From the NCBI GenBank assembly GCA_038818725.1, contig JAWAYL010000002.1:1346-65345 (forward strand): DNA of 64,000 nt, in the 5' to 3' direction. This DNA comes from Thermoplasmatota archaeon. GTDB lineage: Archaea > Thermoplasmatota > E2 > UBA202 > JdFR-43. Made by a program: the position numbers and the translations under genes. Under the pieces are notes generated by a model, which did no database searches, was not told where the DNA came from, and worked only from the letters and a program-made list of their open reading frames with translations. Positions 980 through 63,786 of this stretch are shown here, in pieces; position 1 is the stretch's first letter, and each line of letters begins with the position of its first letter.

Positions 980-3062
980 ATTTATTCAACCATTCATTCC
1001 ATTTTTCCTCAATTTCACGAAAATCTTTAGTTTCCTCAAGAATCGACCAATAGAAATTGTTTGCATCCCTCACAAATTTTGCATCTGTTCTTCCAATTTC
1101 AACAATTTTTTCTTTCATTCTCGCCCTCATCTTTATATTTTCTATTGCTTCTTCCATGCTTATTCCCCATTTCCTAGCTATTTTCCCTATTATCTCTGAT
1201 TGCCCCATATAAAATAAATCTGTTGCTTCAAGAATATCTTTTGAATAATCATATCTCATTATATCTGAAAAAATTTTATCAACATCTTCTTTTTCCCAAA
1301 TCTTACTTACTTCAGATATTTGAATAACCCTTCTTATTCTTTCAATTCCTCCTCTCGCTCTTATAGGTGATGCAATAACAACTATATCTGTTGCTTTAAA
1401 AGAAACCGGTGCGACGCCTATATCATAAACAATTCTATCAAAAACATCCCTCGATGTTGAGCCATGAATTGTTCCCATAACTAAGTTGCCAGCTGCCCCT
1501 ATTCTCATTGCTTCAAATAAAATTTTTGCCTCCTCACCACGAACTTCTCCCAAAATAATAACTGATTCTCCAAGCCTTAAAGCAGTTTTTATCGCTGTTT
1601 TTTCATCTATTCCTTCACTGCTTATAGCTGATTTCGTAACCAGTGATTGAATTTTATAACCTAATCTCTGGAGTTCATCTACTGGTAGCTCAGGAGTATC
1701 TTCTATAGTAAGAATTCTATATCTCTGGGGTATTTCAAGCATTAGTGAAGAAAGCAAGGATGTTTTACCAGCTCCTCTTGAGCCAGCAATTAAAATTGTT
1801 GCCTGCCCATCAACAAAAAAACTCAGCAAGCCAGCAGCAAGCGGAGATAGCATTTTACATGAAATAAATTTTGGAAGTGTCCATAATTCGGATGCATGCC
1901 TTCTTATTGCAAATGCTATTCCTTTTGGTGTTAGTGGCGGGGAAATTGCCGTAATGCGCGAGCCATATTGGGGGAGACCAACATCCATCACTGGAATTGC
2001 CTCTGAAAAACCTCTCCCACTTAAGCTTCTCAGACGAGATGATAATGCTTCAATGTCATTTTCTGAAAAATATATGTTTGTTACATATTCTTCTCCATCA
2101 AGAATTATATGAAGAGGGTTATAGGTTACAGGAGCATTTATATAAATATCCTGTATTTTTTTATCAGCAAGTAAATCTTCTAATATTCCAAATCCTGAAG
2201 TATATTTTGCAAAAACATCAGCCAAAAAGTCTATTCTCTCGCTACTAATTTTATATTTAATATTTTCTGCTATTTCCATTATTTTTTCCTTTCCAAATCT
2301 ATAAAAATATTCTCTTGCTCTTTCCGTATCGATAAATGAAATATCAGTTGGCCTGTGTTTTGCAAGTTTTTCCTTTGCTTTAATAAGTATTTTAAGCTCT
2401 TCAAGGCTTAAATTATATTCAGGAGGTATTATAAAATACAATTTTTCAGCTCTTCTCTTCAGTTCATATAAAGAAACTTTTATACTGCTTCTTTCCTTTT
2501 TTATTTCATAACTTTTAATAAAAACTGCATCATTTGGAGGATTGTATTCAATTGAAGTATCGAAAAATATTGGCCTAACATAAATTCTTATATCTTCATA
2601 AGAGATGTGTTTTATCTTTTCAAAATTTTTTATTATATCTGATATTCTTTTTAAATTTTCGTTTCTGCAATAGTTACATTCTTCTTTTCTTAAAACAAAA
2701 GGCTTTTTAAATTTAAATGCTATATCTAAAAATTTATAAAAAGATTTTATCTGGTCTTTTTTACTTAAATCTATTGCGGATTTTATTTCTTTATTCAATA
2801 TGCAATCTTCGCAATTTAATTTAATAGATGATATTTCCTCCATAAATTTTGAAATTTCAATAAGATTTTCTAAAGCTTCTCCTTCTATTATCTTTACAAA
2901 ATAATGGCTCAATCTTATTCTATCGATTTTTCCTTCTTTTTCAATTATTTCAAGAATCTCTTTTCTGCAATTTTCATCTATAAGTGAAGAAGAATATTTA
3001 CATGAATAGCAATCTATTTCAATTACACTCGCTCCCCCTTCTTTAACAATCCTATAACTCAT
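972..3062 (-). CDS. FlaI/GspE/VirB11-family secretion/pilus ATPase with ~340-aa Cys-containing N-terminal extension
   Basis: 696 aa. Walker A LIAGSRGAGKTSLLSSLMLEI, a Walker B/Asp box region and a His box are typical of GspE/FlaI ATPases. The N-terminal 340 aa carry CxxC pairs (CYSC, CEDC, CNYC). Confidence 0.8.
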   Translation of the reverse strand: MSYRIVKEGGASVIEIDCYSCKYSSSLIDENCRKEILEIIEKEGKIDRIRLSHYFVKIIEGEALENLIEISKFMEEISSIKLNCEDCILNKEIKSAIDLSKKDQIKSFYKFLDIAFKFKKPFVLRKEECNYCRNENLKRISDIIKNFEKIKHISYEDIRIYVRPIFFDTSIEYNPPNDAVFIKSYEIKKERSSIKVSLYELKRRAEKLYFIIPPEYNLSLEELKILIKAKEKLAKHRPTDISFIDTERAREYFYRFGKEKIMEIAENIKYKISSERIDFLADVFAKYTSGFGILEDLLADKKIQDIYINAPVTYNPLHIILDGEEYVTNIYFSENDIEALSSRLRSLSGRGFSEAIPVMDVGLPQYGSRITAISPPLTPKGIAFAIRRHASELWTLPKFISCKMLSPLAAGLLSFFVDGQATILIAGSRGAGKTSLLSSLMLEIPQRYRILTIEDTPELPVDELQRLGYKIQSLVTKSAISSEGIDEKTAIKTALRLGESVIILGEVRGEEAKILFEAMRIGAAGNLVMGTIHGSTSRDVFDRIVYDIGVAPVSFKATDIVVIASPIRARGGIERIRRVIQISEVSKIWEKEDVDKIFSDIMRYDYSKDILEATDLFYMGQSEIIGKIARKWGISMEEAIENIKMRARMKEKIVEIGRTDAKFVRDANNFYWSILEETKDFREIEEKWNEWLNKYV

Positions 3063-3097
3063 TCAAAAATTTAATTTATTATTCAAATATATATTTT

Positions 3098-4321
3098 ATG
3101 GATAAAAAATACATACTTGGAAGAAAAGATTCCGATGAAAAATCTGTTCTGAATATAGGAAAATATTATGCATTGGATGGCTCGCTTGGAGCTCCAGTAT
3201 TTTTAGACATTTCAAAGCCCCATATAGTTTTTATTTGTGGAAAGAGAGGATATGGAAAATCCTATACCATTGGAGTTTTTCTTGAAGAATTTTACTCACT
3301 TGAAGAAGAAATAAGAAAAAACATTTCTTTTATTGTTGCCGATACTCTTGGAATTTTCTGGACAAGCATTTTTCCAAATAAAAGAGAGATTGAAAGCTTA
3401 AAAAGATGGGGAATTGATGCAAGTGGTATAGAAATTGAGATTTTTTCATCTCCTGAATTAGTTAGCTATTATAGAAAATTTGGAATAAAAGCAAATGAAA
3501 TTTCAATAGCAACTTCTTATCTTAAAACATTTCACTGGTGCAGACTTTTTGGTATCTCTCCTAACTCTATGGAAGGAATTGCAATATCAAGAGCAATATG
3601 GGAAATGGAAGGAAAATATGATATAGATGACATAATAGAGAAAATAAGAGATGATGAAGAAATAAGCAATGAAACAAAGCTTGCCTGCATAAATTTTTTT
3701 GTTATGGCAAAAAATTTGAAAATATTTGCAAAAGAGGGAATAAATTTATCAGATATAGCAAAAAGAGGGAAAATATCGGTAATTGATTTAAGTTCTTATG
3801 ATGAAAGTATAAAAGAAGTAATTTTAAGCATTTTAGGAGAAATTATTTTTTATGAAAGAATTATTGAAAGAAAAAAAGATGAAGAAAGGGAAATAGGATT
3901 TTCAAAAGCAGAGCAAAATTTGCCTTTCATATGGCTTGTAATAGATGAAGCACATATTTTTCTCTCAAAAGAGGATAGAATAACAAAAGATGTTTTTATA
4001 AAGAAATGGCTCCGCCAGGGGCGCCAGCCTGGCCTAAGCCTAATTTTAGCGACTCAAAGAGCAAGCTCAATGGACAGTGAAGTAGTGGCTCATGCAGATA
4101 TAATTATCTGCCACCGCCTCACTTCGCAAGAGGATATAGATGCAATGAATAATGTTAGACCAACTTACATGAGAGAAAGCATAGGGGAGGCAATTAAAAA
4201 AATGGGGAGTGAGAAAGGGGTTGCTTTAATAATAGATGATGTGACCGAAGTTAGTCATTTAGTGAAGATTAGGCCGAGGAAAAGCTGGCATGGAGGAGGA
4301 GAGCCAAGCATAGCTATTTAG
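3098..4321 (+). CDS. HerA/FtsK-superfamily P-loop ATPase (DUF87-like)
   Basis: P-loop FICGKRGYGKSYT, Walker B LVIDEAHIF, and the FtsK/HerA-type ILATQRASSMD motif with conserved Q. Confidence 0.5.
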   Translation: MDKKYILGRKDSDEKSVLNIGKYYALDGSLGAPVFLDISKPHIVFICGKRGYGKSYTIGVFLEEFYSLEEEIRKNISFIVADTLGIFWTSIFPNKREIESLKRWGIDASGIEIEIFSSPELVSYYRKFGIKANEISIATSYLKTFHWCRLFGISPNSMEGIAISRAIWEMEGKYDIDDIIEKIRDDEEISNETKLACINFFVMAKNLKIFAKEGINLSDIAKRGKISVIDLSSYDESIKEVILSILGEIIFYERIIERKKDEEREIGFSKAEQNLPFIWLVIDEAHIFLSKEDRITKDVFIKKWLRQGRQPGLSLILATQRASSMDSEVVAHADIIICHRLTSQEDIDAMNNVRPTYMRESIGEAIKKMGSEKGVALIIDDVTEVSHLVKIRPRKSWHGGGEPSIAI

Positions 4322-4372
4322 CAAAAATTTTTTCATTAAAAAATAAAATATATTTGGAAGATATTACTCTCA

Positions 4373-5146
4373 ATGAACCCACTTATGCCAGTAAAGGGGA
4401 AAATAATTGAAAAAAGAAAAATAAATGATAAAAAATTTTTGAGAATCGAGGCAGAAAACTTTAATTTTATTCCAGGACAATTTGTAGAGATATCTCTTGC
4501 TGGAATTGGAGAATTTCCAATATCGATATGCTCCCCACCCTATGAAAAAAATTTTTTTGAAATTTGCATAAGAAAAGTTGGAAGAGCAACTTCTTTCTTC
4601 TATAATATAGATGAAATTGATTATGTTTTTTATAGAGGGCCGTATGGAAATGGCTTTCCAATGGAAAAACTGAAAGGGAAAAATATTGTCGCAATCATAG
4701 GAGGGCTTGGTATACTGCCATTAAGAAGTTTTATAAAAGAAGCTATTCATTCAAAAATTTATAATCAGATAAAAATTCTTTATGGAGCGAGGAGCAAGGA
4801 CGAAATTATATTTCCAGAAGAAATTGAAGAATGGAAAAAGCATGCTGAGGTATATGAAATTTTTGAAAAAGAAGGAGAAAAAAGAGGTTTTGTAACTGAA
4901 TTATTAAATGATATAGTTTTTGATGGGGACGAATATCTTCTTATATGTGGTCCGCCTGCAATGTTTAAGCCAGTTATAGAAAAAGCTATAAAAAGAGGAG
5001 CAAATGAAGAAAATATATATTTGTCTGTTGAAAGAAGAATGAAATGTGGCATTGGAAAATGTGGGCATTGTATTGTTGGAAGCTATTATGCATGCATTGA
5101 TGGTCCTGTTTTTGAGTATGTTAAATATAAGCATGCTATTTTATAG
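4373..5146 (+). CDS. PyrK/NfnA/HydG-family FAD/NAD(P)-binding oxidoreductase subunit with C-terminal [2Fe-2S] motif
   Basis: 257 aa. A ferredoxin-reductase-like fold (RGPYGNGF, GGLGILP) and a C-terminal CGIGKCGHC...C cluster motif, as in sulfide dehydrogenase beta / NfnA / hydrogenase gamma. First gene of a 6-gene translationally coupled operon. Confidence 0.7.
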   Translation: MNPLMPVKGKIIEKRKINDKKFLRIEAENFNFIPGQFVEISLAGIGEFPISICSPPYEKNFFEICIRKVGRATSFFYNIDEIDYVFYRGPYGNGFPMEKLKGKNIVAIIGGLGILPLRSFIKEAIHSKIYNQIKILYGARSKDEIIFPEEIEEWKKHAEVYEIFEKEGEKRGFVTELLNDIVFDGDEYLLICGPPAMFKPVIEKAIKRGANEENIYLSVERRMKCGIGKCGHCIVGSYYACIDGPVFEYVKYKHAIL

Positions 5147-5167
5147 CAAGTAAATGATAAATAAGAG

Positions 5168-5638
5168 ATGATAATTATTTCAGCAATGCTTGTATATAAA
5201 CAATTTCCAGTTTCGATAAATCAAGAAAAATGCTCAAAATGCAGAATATGTGTCTCAATATGTGATTGTTTTTCTTATGATAAAGAAAGGAGCATTATTT
5301 TATTAAATAATATTTCCTGCAAGGGCTGCGGGGTTTGCACCGCTTCCTGCCCTTCTTCTGCTATATCGCATATCCAAGATGATTCGTTTTTTTATTTCTC
5401 TGAAAAAAAGGAGGTAAATGAGCTTGAATGTGAAAAATGTCTTTATGAATTTGTTGAAAGAGAAGATTCAGTAATTTTTTGTGATAGAAGATTTGATATT
5501 GGAATTGCTATTAAAAAATTTTGCGAAGGAAAGAGAATAGAAGTAAAGAAGTGCATTTTTTCAGACAAGCTAGTAGAAAATGAAAAATTCAGAAAATTTT
5601 CAAAAATTGTTCATCTGTTTGGTGTAGAAAATGATTGA
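5168..5638 (+). CDS. 2x[4Fe-4S] ferredoxin-like protein
   Basis: Motifs CSKCRICVSICDC and CKGCGVCTASCP. Its stop overlaps the next gene start (5631/5638). Confidence 0.6.
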   Translation: MIIISAMLVYKQFPVSINQEKCSKCRICVSICDCFSYDKERSIILLNNISCKGCGVCTASCPSSAISHIQDDSFFYFSEKKEVNELECEKCLYEFVEREDSVIFCDRRFDIGIAIKKFCEGKRIEVKKCIFSDKLVENEKFRKFSKIVHLFGVEND

Positions 5639-6689
5639 AGATATAATAACGAGAAGCAAAGCATATTATTGCGTTGAATGCAGGAAATGTAGTTCTGCAT
5701 GTCCAGTTACAAGAGTTTATGGAAAATTTTCTCCAGCAAGTATGGTAGAACACTCTCTGATTGGCATAGAAGATGAAATAATTTATTCATATGATATATG
5801 GAAATGCCTCACTTGTGGAATTTGTGAGAAGATATGCCCCTCTGGTGTGGATTTTTTAAGCTTTATAAAAGAAATAAGAGAAATTGCAAGAGAAAATAAA
5901 AATTTTGGAATCTCAGCACATGAAAATATTTTTGAAGAAGTAGCTTGCTTATTTGGAAAAAATGATATATTTTTAGAAATGAATGATGTAGAGATAGATG
6001 ACAAATCAAAAATTCTCTATTTTGCGGGCTGTTTGCCAATATATGATGTATTTTTTGATAGCATCGGATTCAATGGCATTGCTATTGCAAAAAATACAAT
6101 TAAGATTTTGAATTATTTTGATATAGTTCCATCTGTAATATTTTCATGCTGTGGGCACGATGCTTTATGGAGTGGAAATAAAGGAATTTTTGAAAAAATG
6201 AAAAGAAAAAATATGGAAAAAATTAAAAATTTTGAAAAAATAATATTTTCCTGCCCTGAATGCTACAGAACTTTTAAATTTGATTATAAAGCAAATGTTG
6301 AAATGATGCATATTTCAGAATTCCTTGCAAAAAAAGATTTTGAAGAGAATTTAAATAAAATTTGTACAATTCATGATTCGTGCAGGCTCGGCCGCCATTT
6401 GGGAATTTATGATGAGCCAAGAGAAGCTCTTAAAAAAATTGGATGTGAAATAAAGGAAATGGAGCATTCTCGCGAAGCCTCGATCTGCTGCTCTACTTCT
6501 GCATGGATGGCATGCGACTGGATGGCGGAACAGTTAAGAAAAGAAAGGCTTGCTGAAGCGGAAGAGCAGGCAAATTTGCTCATCACTACTTGCCATAAAT
6601 GCAAAATTCATTTCTTATGCACAATGAGTCATGAAAAATATAATATCGAAGTAAAGGATTTGGTTGAAGTTATTGGAGAGGCCATATGA
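5631..6689 (+). CDS. hdrD: HdrD-like heterodisulfide reductase subunit (HdrC ferredoxin domain fused to HdrB CCG domains)
   Basis: N-terminal CVECRKCSSACP and CLTCGICEKICP (HdrC-like). The C-terminal half has two CCG-type Cys-rich motifs (FSCCGHDALW...CPEC and DSCRLGRH...ICCSTSA...CHKC), as in HdrB/HdrD. No HdrE-like membrane subunit is present. Confidence 0.75.
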   Translation: MIEDIITRSKAYYCVECRKCSSACPVTRVYGKFSPASMVEHSLIGIEDEIIYSYDIWKCLTCGICEKICPSGVDFLSFIKEIREIARENKNFGISAHENIFEEVACLFGKNDIFLEMNDVEIDDKSKILYFAGCLPIYDVFFDSIGFNGIAIAKNTIKILNYFDIVPSVIFSCCGHDALWSGNKGIFEKMKRKNMEKIKNFEKIIFSCPECYRTFKFDYKANVEMMHISEFLAKKDFEENLNKICTIHDSCRLGRHLGIYDEPREALKKIGCEIKEMEHSREASICCSTSAWMACDWMAEQLRKERLAEAEEQANLLITTCHKCKIHFLCTMSHEKYNIEVKDLVEVIGEAI

Positions 6690-7960
6690 AGAATGTGCTT
6701 ATAATAGGAGGAGGCGTTGCTGGAATACAGGCGGCGCTTGACCTTGCGGATCAAGGCATACATGTTTATTTAGTTGAAAAAGAGCCAAGCATCGGCGGAA
6801 GAATGGCTTTGCTTGATAAAACAATGTCAACAAATGATTGCAGTATATGCATTCTTGCCCCTAAAATGAATGAATGCGCATCTCATCCAAATATAGAAAT
6901 TCTTGAATATTCTGAAGTTATTGGGCTTGAGGGAAATGCTGGAAATTTTAAGGTTAAAGTTAAAAGAAAGGCAAAATATGTTGATTCAAGCAAATGCACT
7001 GGATGTGGTGATTGCATGGAAAAATGTCCTACTGAAGTTCCAAATGAATACAATAGCTATATCGATAAAAGGAAGGCAATTTTTCTTCCATTTCCTCAAT
7101 CGGTTCCAAGAAAGGCAACAATTGATAAAAGATATTGCTTGAAATTGAATAAAAATAGATGCGGTCTTTGCCAGAAAATATGCAAGGCAAAGGCGATAGA
7201 TTATAGCCAAGAAGATAAGATAATTGAGCTTGATGCCGCCTCAATAATAGTTGCAACAGGTTTAGAAGTATATAATCCATATGATATTAAAGAATATGGT
7301 TATGGAAAATTTGCAAATGTGCATAGTTGGATTGAATATGAAAGGCTTATAAATGCATCTGGTCCAACTCATGGACATTTAAAATGTGCTCCAGATGGAA
7401 GAAGACCCAAGAGAATTGCATTTATTCAATGCGTTGGCTCTAGAGATGTTAAAAGATGCGAATGGTGCTCTTCTGTCTGCTGTATGGTTTCAATAAAAAG
7501 TGCAATGCTTGCAAACGAGCATTACAATGATATCGAATCCTTCATATTTTATTCAGATTTAAGAGTTTTCAGTAAAAGATTTTATGAATATAGCAAAAGA
7601 GGAGAAAAAGATTACAAAATTACTTACATACATGCTCGTCCAGGAGAAATAAAAGAAGATAGGCATACAAAAAATCTGATAATATATTATGAAGATGAAA
7701 AGGAAGGAAAAGTAAAAGAGCTTGAAGTAGAGATGGTTATTCTTGCAACTCCAATAATGCCTTCAAAAAGCAATCTCGAAATTTCAAAAATTCTTGAAAT
7801 AGAGCTTGATAAATATGGATTTATAAAAACAAATGAAGTTGAAACAACAAGAAAAGGCATATATGCTGCTGGTTGCTGTTGCTCGCCGAAAGACATAACT
7901 GAAAGCGTTTATCAGGCAAGCGCTGCCGCATGCAGGGCAGCGGAGTGGTGCCATGCCTAG
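6686..7960 (+). CDS. hdrA: HdrA-like flavoprotein paralog (FAD/TrxR-like domain plus inserted ferredoxin domain; lacks HdrA N- and C-terminal domains)
   Basis: GxGxxG motif MKNVLIIGGGVAGIQAALDLA, inserted 2x[4Fe-4S] motifs CTGCGDCMEKCP and CGLCQKICKA, and a CSSVCCMVS motif. 424 aa, much shorter than the canonical ~650 aa. Confidence 0.75.
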   Translation: MKNVLIIGGGVAGIQAALDLADQGIHVYLVEKEPSIGGRMALLDKTMSTNDCSICILAPKMNECASHPNIEILEYSEVIGLEGNAGNFKVKVKRKAKYVDSSKCTGCGDCMEKCPTEVPNEYNSYIDKRKAIFLPFPQSVPRKATIDKRYCLKLNKNRCGLCQKICKAKAIDYSQEDKIIELDAASIIVATGLEVYNPYDIKEYGYGKFANVHSWIEYERLINASGPTHGHLKCAPDGRRPKRIAFIQCVGSRDVKRCEWCSSVCCMVSIKSAMLANEHYNDIESFIFYSDLRVFSKRFYEYSKRGEKDYKITYIHARPGEIKEDRHTKNLIIYYEDEKEGKVKELEVEMVILATPIMPSKSNLEISKILEIELDKYGFIKTNEVETTRKGIYAAGCCCSPKDITESVYQASAAACRAAEWCHA

Positions 7961-9626
7961 AATAGGAGTTTTTATCTGCGACTGTGGAACAAATATAGCT
8001 GGCTTTTTAGATGTGCCTGCGGTATGTGAATATGCAAAAAGTTTGCCTGATGTAGTTTATGTAAAGGAAAATATGTATACTTGTTCAAATGCAGGCTTGC
8101 AAGAGATAATGAATGCAATTAAAGAGTATAATCTTGATAGAGTTGTTGTTGCATCATGCACGCCACGAACTCATGAACCACTTTTCAGAAAAGCATGTGA
8201 AATGGCTGGACTAAATAAATTTTTATTTGAATTTGTGAATATACGCGACCAATGCTCATGGGTCCATCAAAAAGAAAGAGAAAAAGCTACAGAAAAAGCA
8301 AAAGATTTGGTAAGAATGGGAGTTGCAAAAGCTCGCCTTCTTGAGCCTCTTGAGGAGATAAAAATAAGTGTGGAAAGAGCATGCCTTATTATAGGAGGTG
8401 GAATTTCTGGTTTAACCTCAGCTATTGCACTCGCAAAAAAAGGCATAGAGGTACATTTAGTGGAAAAAGATGAAAAGCTTGGAGGGATTTTAAACAATAT
8501 TTACAGAGTTTATCCAGATGATGAGGAGGCAATTGAAATTTTAGAGGATATTATTGAAGAAGTTAAAAAATATAAAAATATAAATATATATCTATCAAGC
8601 GAGGTGGAGAAAGTAGATGGATATATAGGGAATTTTAATGTAAAAATAAAAGGAAAAATAAATAAGGAGATAAAAGTAGGAACAATAATTGTTGCAATAG
8701 GAGCAAAACCATATCAACCAGCATACATGTATAACTATCAGGAATATGAAAATATAATAACTCAGATTGAGCTTGAAGAAATGCTTAAAGAAAATAAAAT
8801 AAAAGGAAAGAATTTTGTCTTTATTCAATGTGTTGGAGGAAGGGGAGAAAGGGTGAGATATTGCTCAAGAATATGTTGCATGAATTCAATAAAAAATGCA
8901 AGAATAATAAAGAAATTAATTCCTGATTCAAATGTTTATATAATTCATAAGGGCTTGCAGACATATGGAGTTAAATATGAAGAATATGTAAGGAAGGCAA
9001 GAGAGGAAGGTGTTAGATTTATAAGAGTAAGAGATGAAATTCCAACAGTTTCATCAATTGAAAGAAAAGATGGAAGAATTGTTGTTGGGTTCTATCATCC
9101 TGGACTAAGAAGAAAGATTGAATTGCCCGCAGATTTAGTAATTCTTTCAACACCTCTCGTAGAAAGTGAAGATGCAAAAAGAATATCTCAAATGCTAAAA
9201 GTTCCTCTTGGGCTGGATGGCTTTTTCTTTGAGGCGCATGTAAAGTTGCGCCCCGTAGATTTTGCAACAGATGGTATTTATATGTGTGGTTCATGCAGGG
9301 CGCCCGCAAGCATTGAGGAAGCAAAAATTCAAGCTTTAGCTGCTGCTGGAAGAGCATTAATTCCTATGGCAAATGGTTTTGTTAAAGTTGAGCCATATAC
9401 ACCATATATTGATGAGGAAAAATGCAGGGCTTGTGGGATGTGTGTTGAAGTATGTCCTTATGGAGCAATGAGGATTGTTGAAAAAAATGGTAAAAAAGTG
9501 GCGGAAAACATACAAGCAGCTTGTAAAGGATGTGGAGCTTGCTCTTCTTCCTGCATTCACAAGGCAATTGATATGAGGCATTTCAGTGATAAACAAATAA
9601 TTGCTGAAATAGAGGTGATAGATTGA
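7953..9626 (+). CDS. hdrA: HdrA heterodisulfide reductase subunit A (N-terminal 4-Cys domain + FAD domain + C-terminal 2x[4Fe-4S] ferredoxin; no inserted ferredoxin)
   Basis: N-terminus PRIGVFICDCGTNIAG...VASCTPRTHE; FAD motif CLIIGGGISGLTSAIALA; YCSRICCMNS; C-terminus CRACGMCVEVCP and CKGCGACSSSCIH. Overlaps the neighbouring genes by 8 nt (start) and 4 nt (stop). Confidence 0.8.
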   Translation: MPRIGVFICDCGTNIAGFLDVPAVCEYAKSLPDVVYVKENMYTCSNAGLQEIMNAIKEYNLDRVVVASCTPRTHEPLFRKACEMAGLNKFLFEFVNIRDQCSWVHQKEREKATEKAKDLVRMGVAKARLLEPLEEIKISVERACLIIGGGISGLTSAIALAKKGIEVHLVEKDEKLGGILNNIYRVYPDDEEAIEILEDIIEEVKKYKNINIYLSSEVEKVDGYIGNFNVKIKGKINKEIKVGTIIVAIGAKPYQPAYMYNYQEYENIITQIELEEMLKENKIKGKNFVFIQCVGGRGERVRYCSRICCMNSIKNARIIKKLIPDSNVYIIHKGLQTYGVKYEEYVRKAREEGVRFIRVRDEIPTVSSIERKDGRIVVGFYHPGLRRKIELPADLVILSTPLVESEDAKRISQMLKVPLGLDGFFFEAHVKLRPVDFATDGIYMCGSCRAPASIEEAKIQALAAAGRALIPMANGFVKVEPYTPYIDEEKCRACGMCVEVCPYGAMRIVEKNGKKVAENIQAACKGCGACSSSCIHKAIDMRHFSDKQIIAEIEVID

Positions 9627-12625
9627 AAATACTTGGCTTGCTTTGCAACTGGTGCAGTTATGCAGGAGCGGATTTAGCTGGCGTTAGTAGATTTCAATAT
9701 CCTCCAAGCATAAGAGTTGTTCGTGTGATGTGTTCAACAAGAGTTGAGCCATCTTTTATTATTAAAGCATTTTTAAAAGGAGTTGATGGTGTTCTTGTGG
9801 GCGGATGCCATCTTGGAGATTGCCACTATGTTACTGGAAATTACTATACCATAGGCAAGATTTATGTTGCAAAAAAATTGCTTAAATTTGCTGGAATTAA
9901 TCCCTCTCGTTTAAGACTGGAGTGGATTTCTGCAAGTGAAGGAGAAAAATTTGCAAGAGTTGTTGAAGAATTTACAAGAGAAATTGAAGAGCTAGGCCCT
10001 TTAAAAGATGAGCTAAAAGATGATAATATGCTTAAAGTTGCATATAATGTCGCTAATAAGCCAAGAGCAAGAATAATTGCTTCAAAGCATAGAATGCTTA
10101 CATTTTTTGGAAATAAATATAACGAAATATATACCAATTATGAATTTGATAGGATAAGTGATGAAATTTTAAAAGATGAAATGATTACAGAAGCAATAAA
10201 ATTTTTATTAAAGGATGAAAAAAATTTTGAGGAAATTGCTGAAAGAATTGGAGTTAATGGAAAAACCTTATATTTTTACCTTCTTGATTTGATAAAAAAG
10301 GGAGAAATATCATTTAGAGAAGAAAATGGGAAATATCTGTTTTTTGTAGCAGATAAAAAGGAGGAAAAAATTGAGACATTTATACCAAATTCAATCATAA
10401 GCAAGGAGGCGCATCTAATATTTGGAGCAGGCGCAAAAGGAATAAACAGAGCAATTGAAATAGCAAGAAAAGGGGAAAATGTTGTTATTGTTGAAAGATT
10501 TCCTTCAATAAATAAATATATTATAAGAAAGCATGCCTCCTCTTTTGAAAATGAATGTAAATATGAGGAATTTTTAAATTTAGTAAAAGAAGGAAAAATA
10601 ACTGTTTTAAATAATTCAATTGTAAAAAGCATAAGAGATGGAATTGTAAGAATAATAAAATATCCATCTCGTATAAATGAAAATTGCAATAACTGCAATA
10701 TATGCTATGAAGTTTGCCCTCTTAAAACAGTTGATAGAGAGCAAACTCTTTTTTCAAGAAAGGCAGTTTATGGAAGAAACGGCATTCCATGCACCTTCTT
10801 TTTGGAGAGAGAAAGCCCGTTTTGCCAGACAAATTGTCCAGCACATGTAGATGTTCGTGGGTATGTAGCGAGAATTGCTGAAGGAGATTTTGAAGGAGCA
10901 ATAAATGTTATAAGGCAAAGATTGCCATTACCTGGTGTGCTTGGAAGAGTATGTCCCCATCCTTGCGAAGAGTTTTGCAGAAGAAACGGGATTGATGAGG
11001 CAATTTCAATAAGACTACTAAAGAGATTTGTCGCTGACTGGGAATGGCAAAACAAGGGAATAATTTATCTTGGAAAAATGCCAGTAAATGAGAATAATAA
11101 GCGTAGGGTTGCTATAATTGGCTCTGGTCCTGCTGGCTTAACTGTTGCATATGAACTCGCCAGAATTGGCTACAAAGTTAAAATTTTTGAAGCATTACCT
11201 GTTGCCGGCGGGATGCTTGCTGTTGGCATACCTCCTTATAGGCTTCCAAAAGATGTGCTTGCTAGAGAAATAAATGCGATTCTTGAAATGGGGGTTGAAT
11301 TGCAGTTGAATTGCAAGGTAGGAAAGGATATATCTTTTGATGAGGTGAGAAAAAATTTTGATGCGGTATTTATTGGAATTGGTGCACATAAAAGCAGGAA
11401 AATGGGAATTGAAGGAGAAAATTTGCGGGGTGTTATATCAGGTATTGATTTTTTAAGAGAAGTAAATATATATCCCGAAAATGTAAGAGCAATTATTTCT
11501 GGAAAGAAAGTAGTTGTTGTTGGCGGTGGAGATGTTGCAATAGATGCAGCAAGATGCGCAATAAGATTTGGATGCGATGTAACAATTTTATATAGACGAA
11601 GCAGGGATGAAATGCCAGCTCGTGAAGAGGAAATAAGATATGCAGAGGAGGAAGGGGTTAATTTTCGCTTTCTGGCAGCTCCATTAAAAATTATTGGGAA
11701 AGGAAGCGTTGAAAAAATCGAATGTATAGAAATGGAGCCTGGTGAGCCAGATGAAAGTGGGCGCAGGAGGCCTGTGCCGAAAAAAGGAAGCGAATTCTTC
11801 ATTGAAGCAGATGTTGTTATCTCTGCAATTGGCCAGCAACCTGATTTATCATTTTTACCAGATGAAATAAAAAAAGATGGATTAATTGTTGTTGATGAAA
11901 ATACTGGGGCAACTTCTTTGCCAGGAGTTTTTGCAGGAGGAGATGTAGTAAGTGGCCCTTCAATAGTAATAGAAGCGGTTGCATGGGGAAGAAGGGTTGC
12001 TAGAGCAATAGATGCATATTTAAATGGCAAAAAAATAGAATTTGATCCTATTGAAAGAGATATAAATAGGGCAATTGCAAGTTATGAAGATGTTGAACTA
12101 ATGAAAAGAAATGTTGTTTTATCAATTTTTAAAAAAGAAAATAGGAAAAATATTGAAGAAATAAGCATCGATGAAAGATTAACAACATTTAAGGAAGTTG
12201 AAAAGGGTTTTGATAAAAAAACAGCAATAAGTGAGGCTTCTCGCTGCCTTGCCTGTAGGGCTTGCCTTGGCTGTGGGATATGTGGAAATGAATGCATTAG
12301 AAATGCTATTGATTATGAAGAAAAGGAGGAGGAGATTGAAATATTTGCAAAATCAATAGAAATTGATCCAGAAATAAAATTTAATTATGAATTTTTCACT
12401 CCTTTTGAAATTGAAGATATGCTCCAGCTAGGAATAATTATGAATTTTAAAGGAGAAAAAATAAAGAAGATATGCTTTTTAAATTTTGAGGAAAACAAAT
12501 ACTTCAATGAATTAAAGAAAAAAATTTTAGAAAATGGAATAGAAATTGGCGAATCAGATTTTAAAGTAGATTTCCGCTTTTATGAAACAGATTATTATAA
12601 AAAAATTAAAAAAATGGCTAGCTAA
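9623..12625 (+). CDS. Fusion protein: MvhD (N-terminus) - linker/possible wHTH - GltD/NfnB-like NADPH:FAD oxidoreductase with 4Fe-4S domains - ~120-aa C-terminal tail
   Basis: Residues 1-130 (MKILGLLCNWCSYAGADLAGVS...GGCHLGDCHYVTGNYY) match MvhD. Residues ~330-900 match the GltD/NfnB family: CPAHVDVRGY...RVCPHPCEEFCRR, RVAIIGSGPAGLTVAYELA, VVVVGGGDVAIDAARCAIRFG. A 4Fe-4S motif CLACRACLGCGICGNEC lies near the C-terminus. 1000 aa. Confidence 0.75.
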   Translation: MKILGLLCNWCSYAGADLAGVSRFQYPPSIRVVRVMCSTRVEPSFIIKAFLKGVDGVLVGGCHLGDCHYVTGNYYTIGKIYVAKKLLKFAGINPSRLRLEWISASEGEKFARVVEEFTREIEELGPLKDELKDDNMLKVAYNVANKPRARIIASKHRMLTFFGNKYNEIYTNYEFDRISDEILKDEMITEAIKFLLKDEKNFEEIAERIGVNGKTLYFYLLDLIKKGEISFREENGKYLFFVADKKEEKIETFIPNSIISKEAHLIFGAGAKGINRAIEIARKGENVVIVERFPSINKYIIRKHASSFENECKYEEFLNLVKEGKITVLNNSIVKSIRDGIVRIIKYPSRINENCNNCNICYEVCPLKTVDREQTLFSRKAVYGRNGIPCTFFLERESPFCQTNCPAHVDVRGYVARIAEGDFEGAINVIRQRLPLPGVLGRVCPHPCEEFCRRNGIDEAISIRLLKRFVADWEWQNKGIIYLGKMPVNENNKRRVAIIGSGPAGLTVAYELARIGYKVKIFEALPVAGGMLAVGIPPYRLPKDVLAREINAILEMGVELQLNCKVGKDISFDEVRKNFDAVFIGIGAHKSRKMGIEGENLRGVISGIDFLREVNIYPENVRAIISGKKVVVVGGGDVAIDAARCAIRFGCDVTILYRRSRDEMPAREEEIRYAEEEGVNFRFLAAPLKIIGKGSVEKIECIEMEPGEPDESGRRRPVPKKGSEFFIEADVVISAIGQQPDLSFLPDEIKKDGLIVVDENTGATSLPGVFAGGDVVSGPSIVIEAVAWGRRVARAIDAYLNGKKIEFDPIERDINRAIASYEDVELMKRNVVLSIFKKENRKNIEEISIDERLTTFKEVEKGFDKKTAISEASRCLACRACLGCGICGNECIRNAIDYEEKEEEIEIFAKSIEIDPEIKFNYEFFTPFEIEDMLQLGIIMNFKGEKIKKICFLNFEENKYFNELKKKILENGIEIGESDFKVDFRFYETDYYKKIKKMAS

Positions 12626-13565
12626 TTTCTCCCGCCCAATATGGCTTCCTCACATATTCATATATCTTTTGAGATGCTATTGCTCCATGCGCTGCGCCAA
12701 CAATAAGCAGGCGGAAAGCGCCTCGCACTATATCTCCAACCGCAAAAATTCCCTCAACATTTGTGCGCTGCATTGCATCAGTTATTATATAACCTTTTTC
12801 ATCTGTTTTTATTCCAAGCTCAGCAAACATTTCTGTATTTGGTTTTAATCCAACTGCAAGAACTACTTTATCTACCTTGAGTGTTTTTCTTTCTCCTGTT
12901 TTGTTGTTGAAAATAACTGCTTCCTCAACTTTATCTTTTCCTCTTATTTCTTCAAGCTCTGTATTCAACAATATATTTATCTTACTTTCCTCCATTTTCT
13001 TTACATTTTCATCTAAAGCCCTGAATCTATCTCTCCTATGGATTATTGTTATTTCTTTAGCAAGATCAACTAAATCAAGGGCTGCATCAACAGCGGTATC
13101 TCCTCCTCCAACAATGAGAACCTTGCTATCTATAAAATCTTCTCTATGAGTAACATAGTAATAAACACCCTTATCTCCTTTATTGAATTTACTTTCTCCT
13201 TCTATACCAAGTTCCTGAGGGCGTGTTCCAGTTGCTATAACAATTGTCTTACCATGATATTCATTCTCTTCTGTTTTCACAACTCCTCCTTTTTCTATTT
13301 TAATGACTCTTTCTCTTACCATTTTAATATATGGACTTTCTCTTGCTTGCTTTATCCATTTTCTTACAAGTTCAATTCCAGTTATTCCTTCTGGAAAGCC
13401 AGGATAATTTGGTATTACCTTGCTTGGATATAGTGTTGCTGGCAAACCACCCCATTTTCCTCCTTCAAGTATAAGTGTTTTAAGCATTCTACTTGCACAC
13501 ATGATAGCAGTTGTCAATCCAGCTGGTCCGCCTCCAACAACTATAACATCATACATTTCTTCCAT
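12618..13565 (-). CDS. Thioredoxin reductase-like flavoprotein (TrxB/FNR family) lacking the redox-active CxxC
   Basis: MYDVIVVGGGPAGLTTAI and a second nucleotide-binding motif KVLIVGGGDTAVDAALDL. No CxxC motif anywhere, so possibly a YumC-type ferredoxin:NADP reductase. Convergent with the hdr/mvhD operon, overlapping it by 8 nt. Confidence 0.65.
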   Translation of the reverse strand: MEEMYDVIVVGGGPAGLTTAIMCASRMLKTLILEGGKWGGLPATLYPSKVIPNYPGFPEGITGIELVRKWIKQARESPYIKMVRERVIKIEKGGVVKTEENEYHGKTIVIATGTRPQELGIEGESKFNKGDKGVYYYVTHREDFIDSKVLIVGGGDTAVDAALDLVDLAKEITIIHRRDRFRALDENVKKMEESKINILLNTELEEIRGKDKVEEAVIFNNKTGERKTLKVDKVVLAVGLKPNTEMFAELGIKTDEKGYIITDAMQRTNVEGIFAVGDIVRGAFRLLIVGAAHGAIASQKIYEYVRKPYWAGEIS

Positions 13566-15883: not shown

Positions 15884-16885
15884 TTGTTCAACAAAGCAGA
15901 AAATGAAAACATGTTTATAATATCACGAAATGTGTGGAAAATCGGAGAACAAAATATTTTGAAGCCAAATGTTATTGGTTTGAAGCCAAATTTATATACT
16001 TCCGTGCTATTTATTAGCATGTTCTATTATATTTTGCCGCTTCTTGCTGGATTAATTGCTCAATATATAGATGGAATGCTTGGCATGGGATATGGCGTTT
16101 CTTCTTCCTCACTTCTAGTTGCCGCCGGCTTTATGCCTGCTCTTGTATCCGCATCGGTTCACATGGCTGAAATATTTGTTTCATTCACGTCTGGAATAAG
16201 TCATCTAAAATTTGGAAATGTTGATAAAGATATTTTATTGCCTTTAATAATTCCAGGCGTGGTTGGAGGAATGCTGGGCGCCTATATTCTTTCAGATATA
16301 ATTCCTGAAAAAGAGGTTAAGATAATTGTTAGCTTTATCCTCCTTTGTTTGGGAATTGTAATATTTTTAAGATTTTACTTTGGGAAAATAAAGAAAAGAG
16401 AAGGAAATTTCTCAAAAAGATTCATAATTGCTGTTGGTTTTGCTGGTGGACTGCTGGATGCGATAGGCGGAGGAGGATGGGGACCAGTATGCACATCTTC
16501 GCTTGTCGCATCAAATAAAAGGAGGCCAAGGAAAATAATTGGTTCTGTAAATTTTGCTGAATTTTTTGTAACAATATCAATAACAATAACATTCGCGATA
16601 ACTATTGGAATAGAAAATTTCCTTTGGCATATAACCCTGCCACTAATAGCAGGAGGAGTTATAGCAGCTCCTTTAGCCGCATATACTTGCAAGCGAATTC
16701 CATCTGTTTTACTTGGTAGCCTTGTAGGAATATTACTTACGCTATTAAATGCAAGAACAATAATCTTATCCTTTATATCAATAAATTTTGTAGTAATTCT
16801 GACTATACTTATTTCAATTTTTGCATTCCTCCTTATTATTAAATATGTAAAGCCGGAGAGCAGAATTTTGGAGGAAGAAGAATGA
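15884..16885 (+). CDS. TauE/SafE (TSUP, DUF81) family membrane transporter
   Basis: Multi-TM, with a G-rich helix MLGMGYGVSSSSLLVAAGF and GLLDAIGGGGWGP typical of TSUP. The true start is probably downstream of the annotated ORF start. Confidence 0.6.
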   Translation: MFNKAENENMFIISRNVWKIGEQNILKPNVIGLKPNLYTSVLFISMFYYILPLLAGLIAQYIDGMLGMGYGVSSSSLLVAAGFMPALVSASVHMAEIFVSFTSGISHLKFGNVDKDILLPLIIPGVVGGMLGAYILSDIIPEKEVKIIVSFILLCLGIVIFLRFYFGKIKKREGNFSKRFIIAVGFAGGLLDAIGGGGWGPVCTSSLVASNKRRPRKIIGSVNFAEFFVTISITITFAITIGIENFLWHITLPLIAGGVIAAPLAAYTCKRIPSVLLGSLVGILLTLLNARTIILSFISINFVVILTILISIFAFLLIIKYVKPESRILEEEE

Positions 16886-31646: not shown

Positions 31647-33869
<2,223 letters not shown>

Positions 33870-51604: not shown

Positions 51605-52360
51605 TTATCTTTTAAATTTTACTGTTCCTACCCTTATACCTTTAATTGCTTTTGTTAAATTTCCCTTTATTTTTCCATTTATAAAATAGACATCGCAATC
51701 AATTTTCATTGCTTCTTCAACCTTATTTTTTATTCCTCCAGTGACATCAAAAAATCCTTCGCTTGCCTTTATTTTAATTTTTTCATCTATTATATCAATT
51801 AATTTTGCGTCTTTTTCTTTTGGATTTTTATCATAAATTCCATCAACATCCATTAAAAATATAACTTTTTCAGCAGAAAAATTATTTGCAATATAGCTCA
51901 CTATTTGATCTCCAGATAAAATATCAATTCCTTTATCAACCGAAATTGAGACATCTCCATAAAGAAATGGTATAAAATTTTTATTAATCAAATTTTTTAT
52001 AACTTCAATATAGCCATCTATAATTTTTCCTTCTTTAAGAGTAAAAATTGAAGAAGGACAAATAGGAAAAGATGGCAAACCTTTTTCAATAAAAATATCA
52101 ACTATTTTATTATTCAATTCAATCATTGCCCTATGGGTTTTGTAAAATCCTATCGCTTTTTCATTGCTCCATCCCTCCCTTATTTTATATTTTTTTGCCA
52201 CAGGATGACCATAGCTCCCCCCTCCATGAACAATTAAAAATTTTTTTTCTGGATAAAAATATTTAATTTCTTCAGCAATTTGCTCAACAATTTTTTCATT
52301 AAAAGAAAATGGTTTTTCTTTATTACTTATAACGCTTCCCCCGATTTTTATAATTATCAT
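51605..52360 (-). CDS. ipk: Isopentenyl phosphate kinase
   Basis: MIIIKIGGSVIS...LIVHGGGSYGH amino-acid-kinase family. Sits with the PMDh genes. Confidence 0.85.
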   Translation of the reverse strand: MIIIKIGGSVISNKEKPFSFNEKIVEQIAEEIKYFYPEKKFLIVHGGGSYGHPVAKKYKIREGWSNEKAIGFYKTHRAMIELNNKIVDIFIEKGLPSFPICPSSIFTLKEGKIIDGYIEVIKNLINKNFIPFLYGDVSISVDKGIDILSGDQIVSYIANNFSAEKVIFLMDVDGIYDKNPKEKDAKLIDIIDEKIKIKASEGFFDVTGGIKNKVEEAMKIDCDVYFINGKIKGNLTKAIKGIRVGTVKFKR

Positions 52361-59718: not shown

Positions 59719-59727
59719 ATGATAGAA

Positions 59728-63038: not shown

Positions 63039-63041
63039 TTT

Positions 63042-63785: not shown

Positions 63786-63786
63786 T

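Follow-up and report, generated by a model that had tools for sequence, protein, structure and literature searches.

A hydrogenase-independent, NAD(P)H-linked Hdr/MvhD operon of a Thermoplasmatota archaeon as a candidate flavin-based electron-bifurcating system

We analyzed a 64-kb stretch of DNA from an uncultured Thermoplasmatota archaeon (GenBank assembly GCA_038818725.1, contig JAWAYL010000002.1, positions 1,346 to 65,345; the whole stretch is called the window here) and found six open reading frames (ORF1 to ORF6) that run in the same direction on the + strand at 4373-12625. Our results support the view that these ORFs make up one conserved operon encoding a hydrogenase-independent, NAD(P)H-linked Hdr/MvhD complex, which is a candidate flavin-based bifurcating enzyme. 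The proposal is based on a pair of HdrA paralogs with complementary domains (ORF4 and ORF5), a soluble HdrD-type subunit (ORF3), and an MvhD protein that carries a GltD-like module within a degenerate HdrA unit (ORF6). Judged by its domain composition, the arrangement is a wiring variant of the already described HdrL/type III kind, which is found in sulfate reducers, syntrophs, ANME-1 (anaerobic methanotrophic archaea of group 1), and Asgard archaea. In our literature search, we found no published description of this arrangement in Thermoplasmatota.

Results

Gene calls and absence of hydrogenase partners

An earlier reading made from the sequence alone (the sequence-only reading) had placed the six ORFs at 4373-12625. 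These coordinates are exact, and the gene calls of the public record GCA_038843325.1 (contig JAWBSB010000001.1; record position = window + 75788) coincide with them, except for an alternative start of ORF2. The sequence-only reading also stated that every junction overlaps by 4-8 nucleotides. This is true for ORF2/3, 3/4, 4/5, and 5/6, whose overlaps measured on the sequence are 8, 4, 8, and 4 nucleotides, but ORF1 and ORF2 are separated by a gap of 21 nucleotides (39 with the NCBI start). The TTG start of ORF6 overlaps the TGA stop of ORF5 within TTGA. In the relatives, the close gene spacing is kept, and the exact overlaps vary. In addition, the number of transmembrane segments is 0 in all six proteins.

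In the Pfam tables of the public contigs, which span -2 kb to 64 kb of the window, there is no entry for a hydrogenase, a formate dehydrogenase, FrhB, HdrE, Mcr, or any other methanogenesis marker, and no coenzyme M or coenzyme B genes were found in the 64-kb window. One protein of the window (31647-33869) had no entry of its own in the record, and its region was covered through the neighboring genes. This is consistent with the sequence-only reading, which had seen neither hydrogenase, formate dehydrogenase, and HdrE nor methanogenesis and coenzyme M/coenzyme B markers. The same reading named two results that would speak against it, namely missing HdrB-type CCG or HdrA profiles and mvhAG or fdh genes beside the operon. 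The CCG and HdrA profiles are present, and neither mvhAG nor fdh occurs within 6 kb upstream or 51 kb downstream. Furthermore, no hydrogenase or formate dehydrogenase was found in the loci of the syntenic relatives. The domain assignments as a whole hold in Pfam and NCBIfam searches of each ORF, with the refinements given below.

Two HdrA paralogs with complementary domain loss

ORF4 (6686-7960, + strand; 424 amino acids) and ORF5 (7953-9626, + strand) were compared with HdrA of M. wolfeii (PDB 5odc_A). ORF4 aligned with residues 145-562 (455.6 bits; 140-558 in the HdrA2 model), and ORF5 aligned with residues 4-237 and 318-647, skipping 238-317 (506 bits). The HdrA homology that had been read from the sequence is thus well founded. 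[quoted passage not shown] It retains the flavin adenine dinucleotide (FAD) domain and the inserted ferredoxin domain, as well as two motifs, NDCSIC (the counterpart of the M. wolfeii pair Cys194/Cys197) and the cluster motif CCMxxxK. Meanwhile, ORF5 contains the N-domain and lacks both the inserted ferredoxin domain and the Cys194/197 pair, with YPDDEEAIEIL at the site of the latter. The four HdrA domains (FAD, N-terminal cluster, inserted ferredoxin, and C-terminal ferredoxin) are all present, spread over ORF4 and ORF5.

We took ORF4-type (95) and ORF5-type (103) homologs from 80 related loci. DC(S/A)xC was retained in 94 of the 95 ORF4-type proteins, and any Cys at that site was found in only one of the 103 ORF5-type proteins. 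The same complementarity of N-domain and Cys197 has been described in tandem and fused HdrAs of ANME and Moorella, where it was read as an obligate heterodimer (Chadwick et al., PMC9012536). Since ORF4 and ORF5 match this signature, they would form an obligate HdrA heterodimer as well. The sequence-only reading had described HdrA as split. Judged by their alignments, ORF4 and ORF5 are two full paralogs with complementary domain loss and not halves. Gene fission was ruled out because each ORF holds a complete thioredoxin-reductase-like FAD domain and because the pair is ancient and widespread.

In class II benzoyl-CoA reductase, BamE is a fused HdrA dimer whose bifurcating FAD lies beside Cys59-Cys62, and the other FAD is structural (preprint 10.64898/2026.04.10.717634). 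On the basis of the CxxC pair and the parallel with BamE, we put the branch point at the FAD of ORF4, which is predicted to be the bifurcating one. By the same parallel, the FAD of ORF5 probably has a structural or non-bifurcating role. The flavin-contacting lysine was also considered as a discriminator of the bifurcating FAD, and it was dropped because CCMxxxK occurs in both paralogs.

In three ORF4-type HdrAs, a stop codon stands at the Cys197 site ('NDCSLX'), and selenocysteine is probable there. An in-frame stop at a conserved Cys was also seen in an MvhD of Pelotomaculum propionicicum (L040:4993-5376), again with selenocysteine as the probable residue. A selenocysteine at this HdrA position (U197) is reported to occur in M. 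maripaludis.

A GltD module within a degenerate HdrA unit fused to MvhD

ORF6 (9623-12625, + strand; 1000 amino acids) had been described as MvhD fused to a GltD/NfnB-like protein. Both modules are there, but Pfam, PDB, hhalign, and BLASTP comparisons revealed more domains, including a winged-helix linker and a degenerate HdrA scaffold. The MvhD domain occupies residues 1-128 (9623-10006, + strand) and has the invariant cysteines C8, C11, C37, C62, and C67 (172 bits to Pfam FlpD and 172 bits to PDB 5odc_D). It is followed by a helical, winged-helix-like linker (residues 129-261; 10007-10405, + strand) with a weak match to Pfam HTH_40. In the AlphaFold2 model, residues 172-242 of the linker form three helices and a beta hairpin, with a predicted local distance difference test score (pLDDT) of 80-86. 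Such an extension of MvhD to about residue 240 was found in 46 of the 80 related loci.

Residues 262-400 (10406-10822, + strand) represent the N-terminal part of a third, degenerate HdrA unit, as indicated by hhalign, BLASTP, and the motif map. Residues 262-407 aligned with residues 2-168 of the ORF4 family (hhalign probability 99.3%, E = 1.8e-20; BLASTP E = 2e-8), and residues 262-400 contain a Rossmann motif of the form GxGxxG...E together with C355-C365, which make up the first CxxCxxCxxxCP of the inserted ferredoxin domain. Residues 806-1000 (12038-12625 with the stop codon, + strand) contain the second half of the split ferredoxin domain and a degenerate remnant of the HdrA NAD subdomain (BLASTP, motif map, and AlphaFold2). 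Residues ~849-932 matched residues 126-203 of ORF4, a segment with the second ferredoxin half and the strand after it (BLASTP E = 3e-6), the cysteines of the second ferredoxin half are C875, C878, C881/C884/C887, and C891, and residues 903-1000 were modeled with a pLDDT of 80-87. DCxxC, CCMxxxK, and the C-terminal FAD segment are all lost in ORF6, and the motif map showed that DCxxC and CCMxxxK are also lost in relatives of ~1000 amino acids. Judged by these motifs, the HdrA unit of ORF6 is a scaffold and not a third HdrA enzyme. The dinucleotide-binding motif of this scaffold (residues 268-291 of ORF6; 10424-10495) is invariant across the family at G268, G270, G273, and E291, even though the scaffold has lost the C-terminal half of its FAD domain.

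The GltD-like module (residues 401-805; 10823-12037, + strand) was identified by Pfam (Fer4_20 and Pyr_redox_2), PDB, and fold searches. By the alignments on both of its sides, it sits inside the inserted ferredoxin domain and splits it. The FeS ligands of the module are C401, C405, C444, C448, C452, and K467. It has the FAD motif GSGPAG and the nucleotide motifs GGGDVA and YRRSR, of which GxGxxA and YRR are invariant in the family. The two nucleotide motifs would be of NADPH type, as judged also from enzymes of the GltD family. The PDB scores were 462 bits for T. sibiricus NfnA, 444 for C. saccharolyticus NfnABC, 385 for S. ovata StnC, and 354/346 for NfnB/NfnI-L. A fold search with the whole ORF6 model gave the same ranking as the sequence; it found only the GltD relatives again and was uninformative on the small domains. 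The motif rule for the NADPH type was taken from PMC12054007.

K467 is invariant in the ORF6 family and aligns with K170 of StnC and with a Glu of NfnB. The equivalents of StnC C104, C108, C147, C151, and C155 are also invariant in the family, and StnC C114 is replaced by Val in ORF6. StnC (K170) and NfnABC ligate the flavin-proximal cluster with a Lys, whereas the bifurcating NfnB/NfnL use a Glu. In Stn and NfnABC, the flavin of the GltD domain only transfers electrons, and bifurcation occurs elsewhere. Thus, the Lys ligand and the best matches to StnC/NfnABC suggest that the GltD module is a plug-in NADPH port rather than a second bifurcation site of Nfn type.

ORF3, ORF1, and ORF2

ORF3 (5631-6689, + strand; 352 amino acids) encodes a soluble HdrD-type subunit. 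As the sequence-only reading had proposed, it is a fusion of an HdrC-like 2x[4Fe-4S] domain with an HdrB-like double CCG domain, and all ten cysteines of the latter are present, in two complete sets (C134..C173C174..C208xxC211 and C251..C286C287..C321xxC324). This assignment came from Pfam (CCG, 71 bits in two stretches, and Fer4_8), NCBIfam (C-terminal part of TfrB, 120 bits), PDB (residues 4-98 against HdrC 5odc_C, 48 bits), and the Cys spacing. Relatives of ORF3 at 41-45% identity are named HdrD or (Fe-S)-binding protein. Some of the relatives, in Methanoperedenaceae and others, are MvhD-HdrD fusions of ~521-566 amino acids (P0162, P0226, and P0230), which are another instance of MvhD joined directly to a partner module.

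ORF1 (4373-5146, + strand; 257 amino acids) has an FNR fold for FAD and NAD(P)H and a C-terminal [2Fe-2S] motif (C225, C230, C233, and C241) in a PyrK-type tail. The Pfam matches were NAD_binding_1 and DHODB_Fe-S_bind. The best NCBIfam models were hydrogenase gamma (243 bits), ShyC (223), and AsrB (201), with 89 bits for the NfnA-type PRK06222. In PDB, the gamma subunit of P. furiosus sulfhydrogenase I (9nez_C) scored 189 bits, PyrK 76, and NfnA/NfnI-S 59/50. By these scores, ORF1 is a subunit of the sulfhydrogenase-gamma/AsrB/FlxA type and not NfnA. FlxA is included here because we take it to be of the same FNR plus [2Fe-2S] type as ORF1 and sulfhydrogenase gamma. The earlier label of NfnA/PyrK-like is thus right for the superfamily (FNR domain and PyrK-type tail) but not for NfnA. 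The sequence-only reading had further taken the two NAD(P)H modules as halves of NfnAB. This was ruled out as a membership by the low NfnA scores of ORF1 and by K467 in place of Glu, the Lys that the GltD module shares with StnC/NfnABC. ORF1 was found in loci L093, L005, and L013 and is missing in L094 (tblastn negative) and in the ANME-1-type clusters. Its absence from L094 suggests that ORF2 to ORF6 are the core and that ORF1 is accessory.

ORF2 (5168-5638, + strand; 156 amino acids) was identified with NCBIfam and hhalign. It had been called a ferredoxin, which is correct for its 2x[4Fe-4S] part but incomplete, since an 85-residue tail with four invariant cysteines (C88, C91, C105, and C129) was overlooked. 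The ferredoxin part resembles the C-terminal ferredoxin domain of HdrA and HdrA2: residues 9-69 aligned with HdrA2 566-626, and residues 15-144 with HdrA 582-706/771 (NCBIfam). In the ANME-type locus L016, a protein of 210 amino acids at the same position consists of ferredoxin plus FlpD, and its tail matched Pfam FlpD/MvhD with E = 9.8e-13. The ORF2 family aligned with this protein over the whole length (hhalign probability 98%, E = 1.5e-13). When the L016 protein was included in the profile, the tail aligned with MvhD at a probability of 96.7%, with C88/C91/C105/C129 matching C8/C11/C37/C62. Without this bridge, the probability was 1% (E = 0.05, not significant) and the register was unchanged. 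The family is small, with about 10 clusters in Thermoplasmatales-like metagenome-assembled genomes (MAGs) only. The AlphaFold2 model made from 9 sequences was poor (mean pLDDT 59), and a Foldseek search of PDB with this poor model gave no match at E <= 0.001. From the alignments, the tail of ORF2 is probably a reduced MvhD-like [2Fe-2S] domain, and ORF2 is probably a miniature of the arm of C-terminal ferredoxin plus MvhD that is absent from ORF4.

Conservation and distribution of the gene cluster

The relatives were searched in one genome per species, and the counts given here come from the best 80 loci. The same gene order occurs in at least four related Thermoplasmatota MAGs, with ORF1 absent in one of them (L094). 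The closest relative, GCA_014361195.1 (L093), has the same genes and the same flanks, with 83% identity in ORF6. The six-gene order is also found in L005 and L013 (about 63%). In L094 (67%), the order from ORF2 to ORF6 is kept, and a convergent FrhB/FdhB-like gene is present instead of ORF1. FrhB/FdhB-like genes adjoin the cluster in L005, L094, and L016. Furthermore, the order HdrD, HdrA', HdrA, MvhD with winged helix, and HdrA''(GltD) was found in Methanophagales/ANME-1-type and Bathyarchaeia loci (L006, L014-L016, and L055), with 41-55% identity to the ORFs in L006 and L014-L016. In L016, FrhB-like and ferredoxin-MvhD-like genes precede the array from HdrD to GltD.

The GltD-bearing unit is present in 40 of the 80 loci, 16 of which also have an FNR-like gene. 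The scan included Syntrophaceae, Pelotomaculum, Anaerolineae, Dehalococcoidia, Spirochaetes, Synergistaceae, Cloacimonadota, Clostridia, Asgard archaea, and Thermoplasmata. The prevalent architecture is the HdrL type, a protein of ~1470-1650 amino acids with a complete HdrA (GltD-inserted) and an HdrA with N-domain, in some cases also with MvhD. The gene of this protein is followed by genes for two FeS proteins (Fer4_8 and Fer4_22), an FNR-like subunit, and an HdrD-like protein.

In addition, an HdrA lacking the N-domain, an HdrA that has it, and an MvhD with winged helix follow one another as a unit that is repeated in tandem two or three times in loci of Asgard archaea, Bathyarchaeia, and Thermoplasmata (L087, L069, L079, L041, L078, L058, and L062). 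These loci may encode chains of HdrA heterodimers held by long MvhD adaptors. We found no description of such repeats in the literature.

Discussion

Comparison with known systems

The sequence-only reading took the bacterial Flx-Hdr system as the nearest analogue. This is fair for ORF1 and ORF2, but the HdrL and type III clusters are closer to the operon as a whole. HdrL was named in 2009, when it was proposed to feed electrons from NADH to sulfite reduction (PMC2702500). S. fumaroxidans grown with sulfate contains HdrABC/HdrL together with MvhD at high abundance (PMC5947623), and in D. reducens, a large HdrA/NADH-binding protein takes the place of FlxA (PMC4759654). Examples are HdrL1-3 of Desulfobacterium autotrophicum, Sfum_0819-0824 of Syntrophobacter fumaroxidans, and Dred_1325-30 of Desulfotomaculum reducens, and the architecture also occurs in Asgard archaea, Chloroflexota, Pelotomaculum, and others. 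The function of HdrL is known from genomics and proteomics only. Like the operon, HdrL has a GltD module in the inserted ferredoxin domain of an HdrA-like unit and no hydrogenase. It is likewise accompanied by an HdrA with N-domain, by MvhD and a CCG protein, and in many cases by a subunit of FNR-like (FlxA-like) type. However, the GltD-bearing unit of HdrL is a complete HdrA with DCxxC and CCMxxxK (for example, P0026, P0021, P0074, P0099, and P0045), so that the NAD(P)H module lies on the ferredoxin exit of the presumptive bifurcating protomer. In the operon, a degenerate GltD unit is joined to the MvhD input arm, while ORF4, as an intact HdrA of its own, keeps its ferredoxin domain free. Moreover, the small ORF2 replaces the Fer4_22/Fer4_8 proteins similar to FlxB/C.

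Descriptions from ANME and other archaea include HdrAs with GltD/NfnB insertions, HdrA clusters that contain HdrD, and tandem HdrAs that form heterodimers (PMC9012536 and PMC12054007). The type III HdrAs (HdrA9-11) and tandem HdrA pairs of ANME-1, Bathyarchaeota, and other methane/alkane archaea share with the operon the topology of the GltD/NfnB insertion, the N-domain/Cys197 complementarity, and HdrD in the cluster. The operon differs from them by its Thermoplasmatota host, and none of the genes in the 64-kb window belongs to methane metabolism. In addition, MvhD with winged helix and the GltD unit are one polypeptide (they are separate genes in L016), the HdrA remnant is more degenerate, and the nucleotide motif is GxGxxA (NADPH type), whereas it is GxGxxG in the published type III set. 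An FNR-like gene stands at the position of the FrhB-like gene of L016.

The FlxABCD-HdrABC system of Desulfovibrio (Ramos et al. 2015), as it is presented in PMC4759654 and PMC5947623, is like the operon hydrogenase-independent and fed by a flavoprotein through an MvhD-like adaptor, and according to these accounts, ferredoxin and a protein disulfide (DsrC) were put forward as the two acceptors of its bifurcation. The operon contains a FlxA-type FNR subunit (ORF1) and the MvhD-like counterpart of FlxD (MvhD in ORF6 and probably a second one in ORF2). However, it has no homologues of FlxB/FlxC (Fer4_22), although Fer4_22 proteins are present in the bacterial locus L040. It also has two HdrA paralogs, a fused HdrB/HdrC, and a second NADPH module of GltD type fused to MvhD. 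Two of the differences that the sequence-only reading had listed, the fusion of HdrB with HdrC and that of MvhD with GltD, therefore stand, and the split HdrA does not.

MvhADG-HdrABC (5ODC and later cryo-electron microscopy) is homologous to the operon in HdrA (455-506 bits), MvhD (172 bits), HdrC, and CCG, and the operon has all cofactor motifs of one complete bifurcation path. The differences are the lack of MvhAG, a heterodimer with a single low-potential branch instead of an HdrA homodimer, and the fused HdrBC. CoM-S-S-CoB is not expected as the substrate of the operon. The only solved HdrA system from outside methanogens is BamBCDEFGHI (10.64898/2026.04.10.717634), which is similar to the operon in its pseudo-heterodimeric HdrA, its adaptor of MvhD plus winged helix (BamF) to a nucleotide input module, and its HdrD-like exit. 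In Bam, the input is an NADH/ferredoxin module of HydBC/Bfu type and not GltD, the low-potential exit leads to a tungsten enzyme, and the HdrA units are one chain. The GltD domain of StnABC/NfnABC (Bfu family), a plug-in NADPH port for a separate bifurcating module, is the best sequence and fold match of ORF6 residues 401-887; in ORF6, it is attached to HdrA/MvhD instead of NuoG/HydBC. NfnAB differs in its Glu-ligated proximal cluster and in that NfnS adjoins NfnL, whereas ORF1 is five genes away from GltD and absent in L094. Finally, HdrDE has the cytochrome b anchor HdrE, whereas the operon encodes no membrane protein.

Proposed mechanism and alternative explanations

We propose that the operon encodes a soluble, hydrogenase-independent complex built on an obligate HdrA heterodimer, which most likely performs bifurcation of HdrA type, or confurcation in reverse, with NADPH as the mid-potential partner. 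In our judgment, this proposal stands at about even chances. NADPH would reduce the FAD of GltD. Single electrons would then pass from the GltD clusters to the clusters of the split ferredoxin domain, the C-terminal ferredoxin domain of ORF5, the [2Fe-2S] cluster of MvhD in ORF6, and the FAD of ORF4, where bifurcation would take place. The high-potential electron would move through the cluster of the thioredoxin-reductase domain of ORF4 to ORF3 and an acceptor of disulfide or persulfide type. The low-potential electron would move through a composite cluster (N-domain of ORF5 plus Cys197 of ORF4) and the inserted ferredoxin domain of ORF4 to ferredoxin. The absence of DCxxC and CCMxxxK from ORF6 would leave ORF4 as the only seat of the bifurcating site, and nothing obstructs the ferredoxin domain of ORF4. 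Meanwhile, ORF1 and ORF2 would form a second, exchangeable accessory NAD(P)H port consisting of a FlxA-like flavoprotein and a ferredoxin/mini-MvhD adaptor. This adaptor would supply the C-terminal arm that ORF4 lacks, and in relatives an FrhB-like gene would take the place of ORF1. In a ferredoxin-producing fermenter, the complex may well run in the reverse direction. The motifs, homologies, and complementarity were observed in the proteins; the path, direction, substrate, and nucleotide specificity are inferred, the path by analogy with the structures of Mvh-Hdr and class II benzoyl-CoA reductase.

Several points weigh against this proposal. The electron path is an analogy throughout because none of the complexes of HdrL or type III kind has been purified. 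Bifurcation needs only three substrate ports, and there are four candidates here (GltD, ORF1, HdrD, and the inserted ferredoxin domain). The CCMxxxK lysine in both ORF4 and ORF5 leaves the CxxC pair as the one feature by which the bifurcating FAD is assigned, and the NADPH specificity is read from motifs only. Moreover, the MvhD-like nature of the ORF2 tail hangs on one bridging sequence, and the AlphaFold2 model is of no help here. In addition, the HdrD-like BamD binds no heterodisulfide and passes electrons to the electron-transferring flavoprotein (10.64898/2026.04.10.717634), so intact CCG cysteines are no proof of disulfide chemistry.

In another reading, the complex is an HdrA-based transhydrogenase similar to Nfn: NADPH would enter at GltD, and bifurcation at the FAD of ORF4 would yield reduced ferredoxin and, through ORF3 as a wire, ORF2, and ORF1, the reduction of NAD+, with no thiol or disulfide substrate. 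We regard this as unlikely. It keeps, as a matter of function only, the idea of the sequence-only reading that both Nfn-like modules flank an Hdr core. It would use exactly three ports, as many as bifurcation requires, and the gene order ORF1-ORF2-ORF3-ORF4 parallels the proposed wire. BamD offers a precedent for an HdrD-like protein as an electron outlet instead of a disulfide reductase, and the FNR-like gene that accompanies GltD in 16 of the 40 loci adjoins the HdrD-like gene in Pelotomaculum. However, L094 and the ANME-1-type and Bathyarchaeia clusters retain ORF3 but have no ORF1, so ORF3 must use another acceptor there. All ten CCG cysteines are conserved, and ORF2 resembles the input arm of C-terminal HdrA ferredoxin plus MvhD and not a partner of HdrD. 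Furthermore, the operon would be a machine of eleven domains for a reaction that NfnSL performs with two subunits. A related reading is an asymmetric machine with two ports, GltD/NADPH on the full MvhD arm and the FlxA-like protein with NAD(P)H on the mini ferredoxin-MvhD arm, which would work as a thiol-free transhydrogenase or as two couplings in series. This has no characterized precedent and seems doubtful to us. If true, the move of the NADPH module from the ferredoxin exit (in HdrL) to the MvhD input would be an evolutionary switch of the bifurcation branch that is occupied by NADPH.

Bifurcation would be dispensable if the complex were a linear NAD(P)H:disulfide (or persulfide/polysulfide) oxidoreductase in which the HdrA units serve as a wire, as proposed for the sulfur-oxidizing Hdr-like complex (sHdr) and Qmo, with no coupling to ferredoxin. 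The HdrA of sulfur-oxidizing Hdr-like complexes is regarded as non-bifurcating, and sHdr HdrA (6tjr_A) is the next-best structural relative of ORF4 and ORF5 after the methanogen HdrAs. GltD-HdrD fusions exist as an NCBIfam family (NF045663), which is matched by ORF3 and ORF6, and flow from NAD(P)H to CCG thus needs no bifurcation; the reduction of most disulfides by NAD(P)H is exergonic. Nevertheless, we consider the linear reaction quite improbable, since the low-potential branch of the operon is complete and invariant in the family, with the N-terminal cluster domain, the Cys194/197 pair, and a free inserted ferredoxin domain. HdrA of sHdr type is without these domains, and 6tjr_A (349 amino acids) aligns with the FAD core only. 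Still less probable, and indeed very unlikely in our view, is a conventional Hdr dependent on H2, formate, or F420H2, in which an MvhAG, FdhAB, or FrhB-like donor encoded elsewhere docks on one of the MvhD-type domains and the nucleotide modules are secondary. MvhD is the classical adaptor for MvhAG, and the top-scoring model for ORF4, for ORF5, and for the MvhD part of ORF6 is that of the F420H2-dependent HdrA2; the FrhB/FdhB-like neighbors in L005, L094, and L016 would also fit. But these neighbors are convergent or in place of ORF1 and not in place of the GltD module, and a covalent fusion ties the main MvhD to the NADPH module. Furthermore, neither the 64-kb window nor the closest syntenic relative (L093) contains a hydrogenase, Fdh, or FrhB.

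Few unexplained redox modules of anaerobes are as widespread as HdrA clusters free of hydrogenase, which occur in sulfate reducers, syntrophs, ANME, Asgard archaea, and Bathyarchaeia. The operon described here is compact, with six soluble and probably thermostable subunits, one complete bifurcation path, and a ferredoxin site apart from the NADPH port. Because of these properties, it would be a good candidate for heterologous expression and cryo-electron microscopy on the coupling of NAD(P)H to HdrA. In addition, the comparison with HdrL suggests that the same GltD module can be wired to either side of the bifurcating flavin, which bears on the modular evolution of bifurcating enzymes. In the host, presumably a fermentative or sulfur-dependent thermophile, the complex would connect the NADPH, ferredoxin, and thiol redox pools.

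Promoter region and neighboring genes

The G+C content of the window is about 32%. The 51-nucleotide spacer before ORF1 (4322-4372, + strand) is AT-rich and contains a TATA-like sequence, AAAATAAAATATAT, ~20-30 nucleotides before the ATG, as read by eye. It is a putative archaeal operon promoter. A scan for sigma-70 promoters and terminators gave counts near those of shuffled sequences; its model is bacterial and does not apply to archaea. Directly before the operon, 972-4321 together with upstream genes in L001 encodes a T2SSE/FlaI-like ATPase (696 amino acids), a DUF87/HerA-like ATPase (407 amino acids), and a 606-amino-acid protein without Pfam matches. This gene set, which may be a pilus or DNA-transfer module, is syntenic in L093.

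Downstream, a gene for a thioredoxin-reductase-fold flavoprotein of 315 amino acids (ORF7; 12618-13565, - strand) is convergent with ORF6 and overlaps it by 8 nucleotides. The protein lacks the redox CxxC (GVYYYVTHRED versus GVSYCAVCDG of thioredoxin reductase) and is probably a ferredoxin:NADP+ reductase of the thioredoxin reductase type. As a neighbor of the operon, the gene is conserved in L093 (95%) and L005 (84%), whereas L094 does not share it. We considered whether ORF7 is a thioredoxin reductase that points to thioredoxin as a substrate, and this was ruled out by the missing CxxC, the convergent orientation, and the absence from L094. Three kb downstream of the operon, 15884-16885 (+ strand) encodes a membrane protein of the TauE/SafE family (similar to sulfite/anion exporters), followed by a MazE-like gene and Alba; a link of the TauE/SafE gene to sulfur metabolism would be a guess. 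None of the genes near the operon in the window is GcvH-like, but in L094 a gene for a GcvH-like lipoyl carrier lies 1.6 kb upstream of the operon (L094:3513-3890, - strand). It is a possible substrate hint, since lipoate-binding proteins are partners of sulfur-oxidizing Hdr-like systems.

The remaining genes of the window are housekeeping genes and a type III-A Csm module. The latter, at ~58990-63821, includes Cas6 and the Csm set (Csm2, RAMPs, and Csm4; Pfam table of L010), and Tandem Repeats Finder detected no CRISPR array in the window. At 51605-53912 (- strand), genes for the large and small subunits of AcnX type adjoin a gene of the amino-acid-kinase fold, an arrangement that fits the modified mevalonate pathway of archaea. 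Since archaea of the Thermoplasma type follow another mevalonate route, the MAG probably lies outside the strict Thermoplasmatales.

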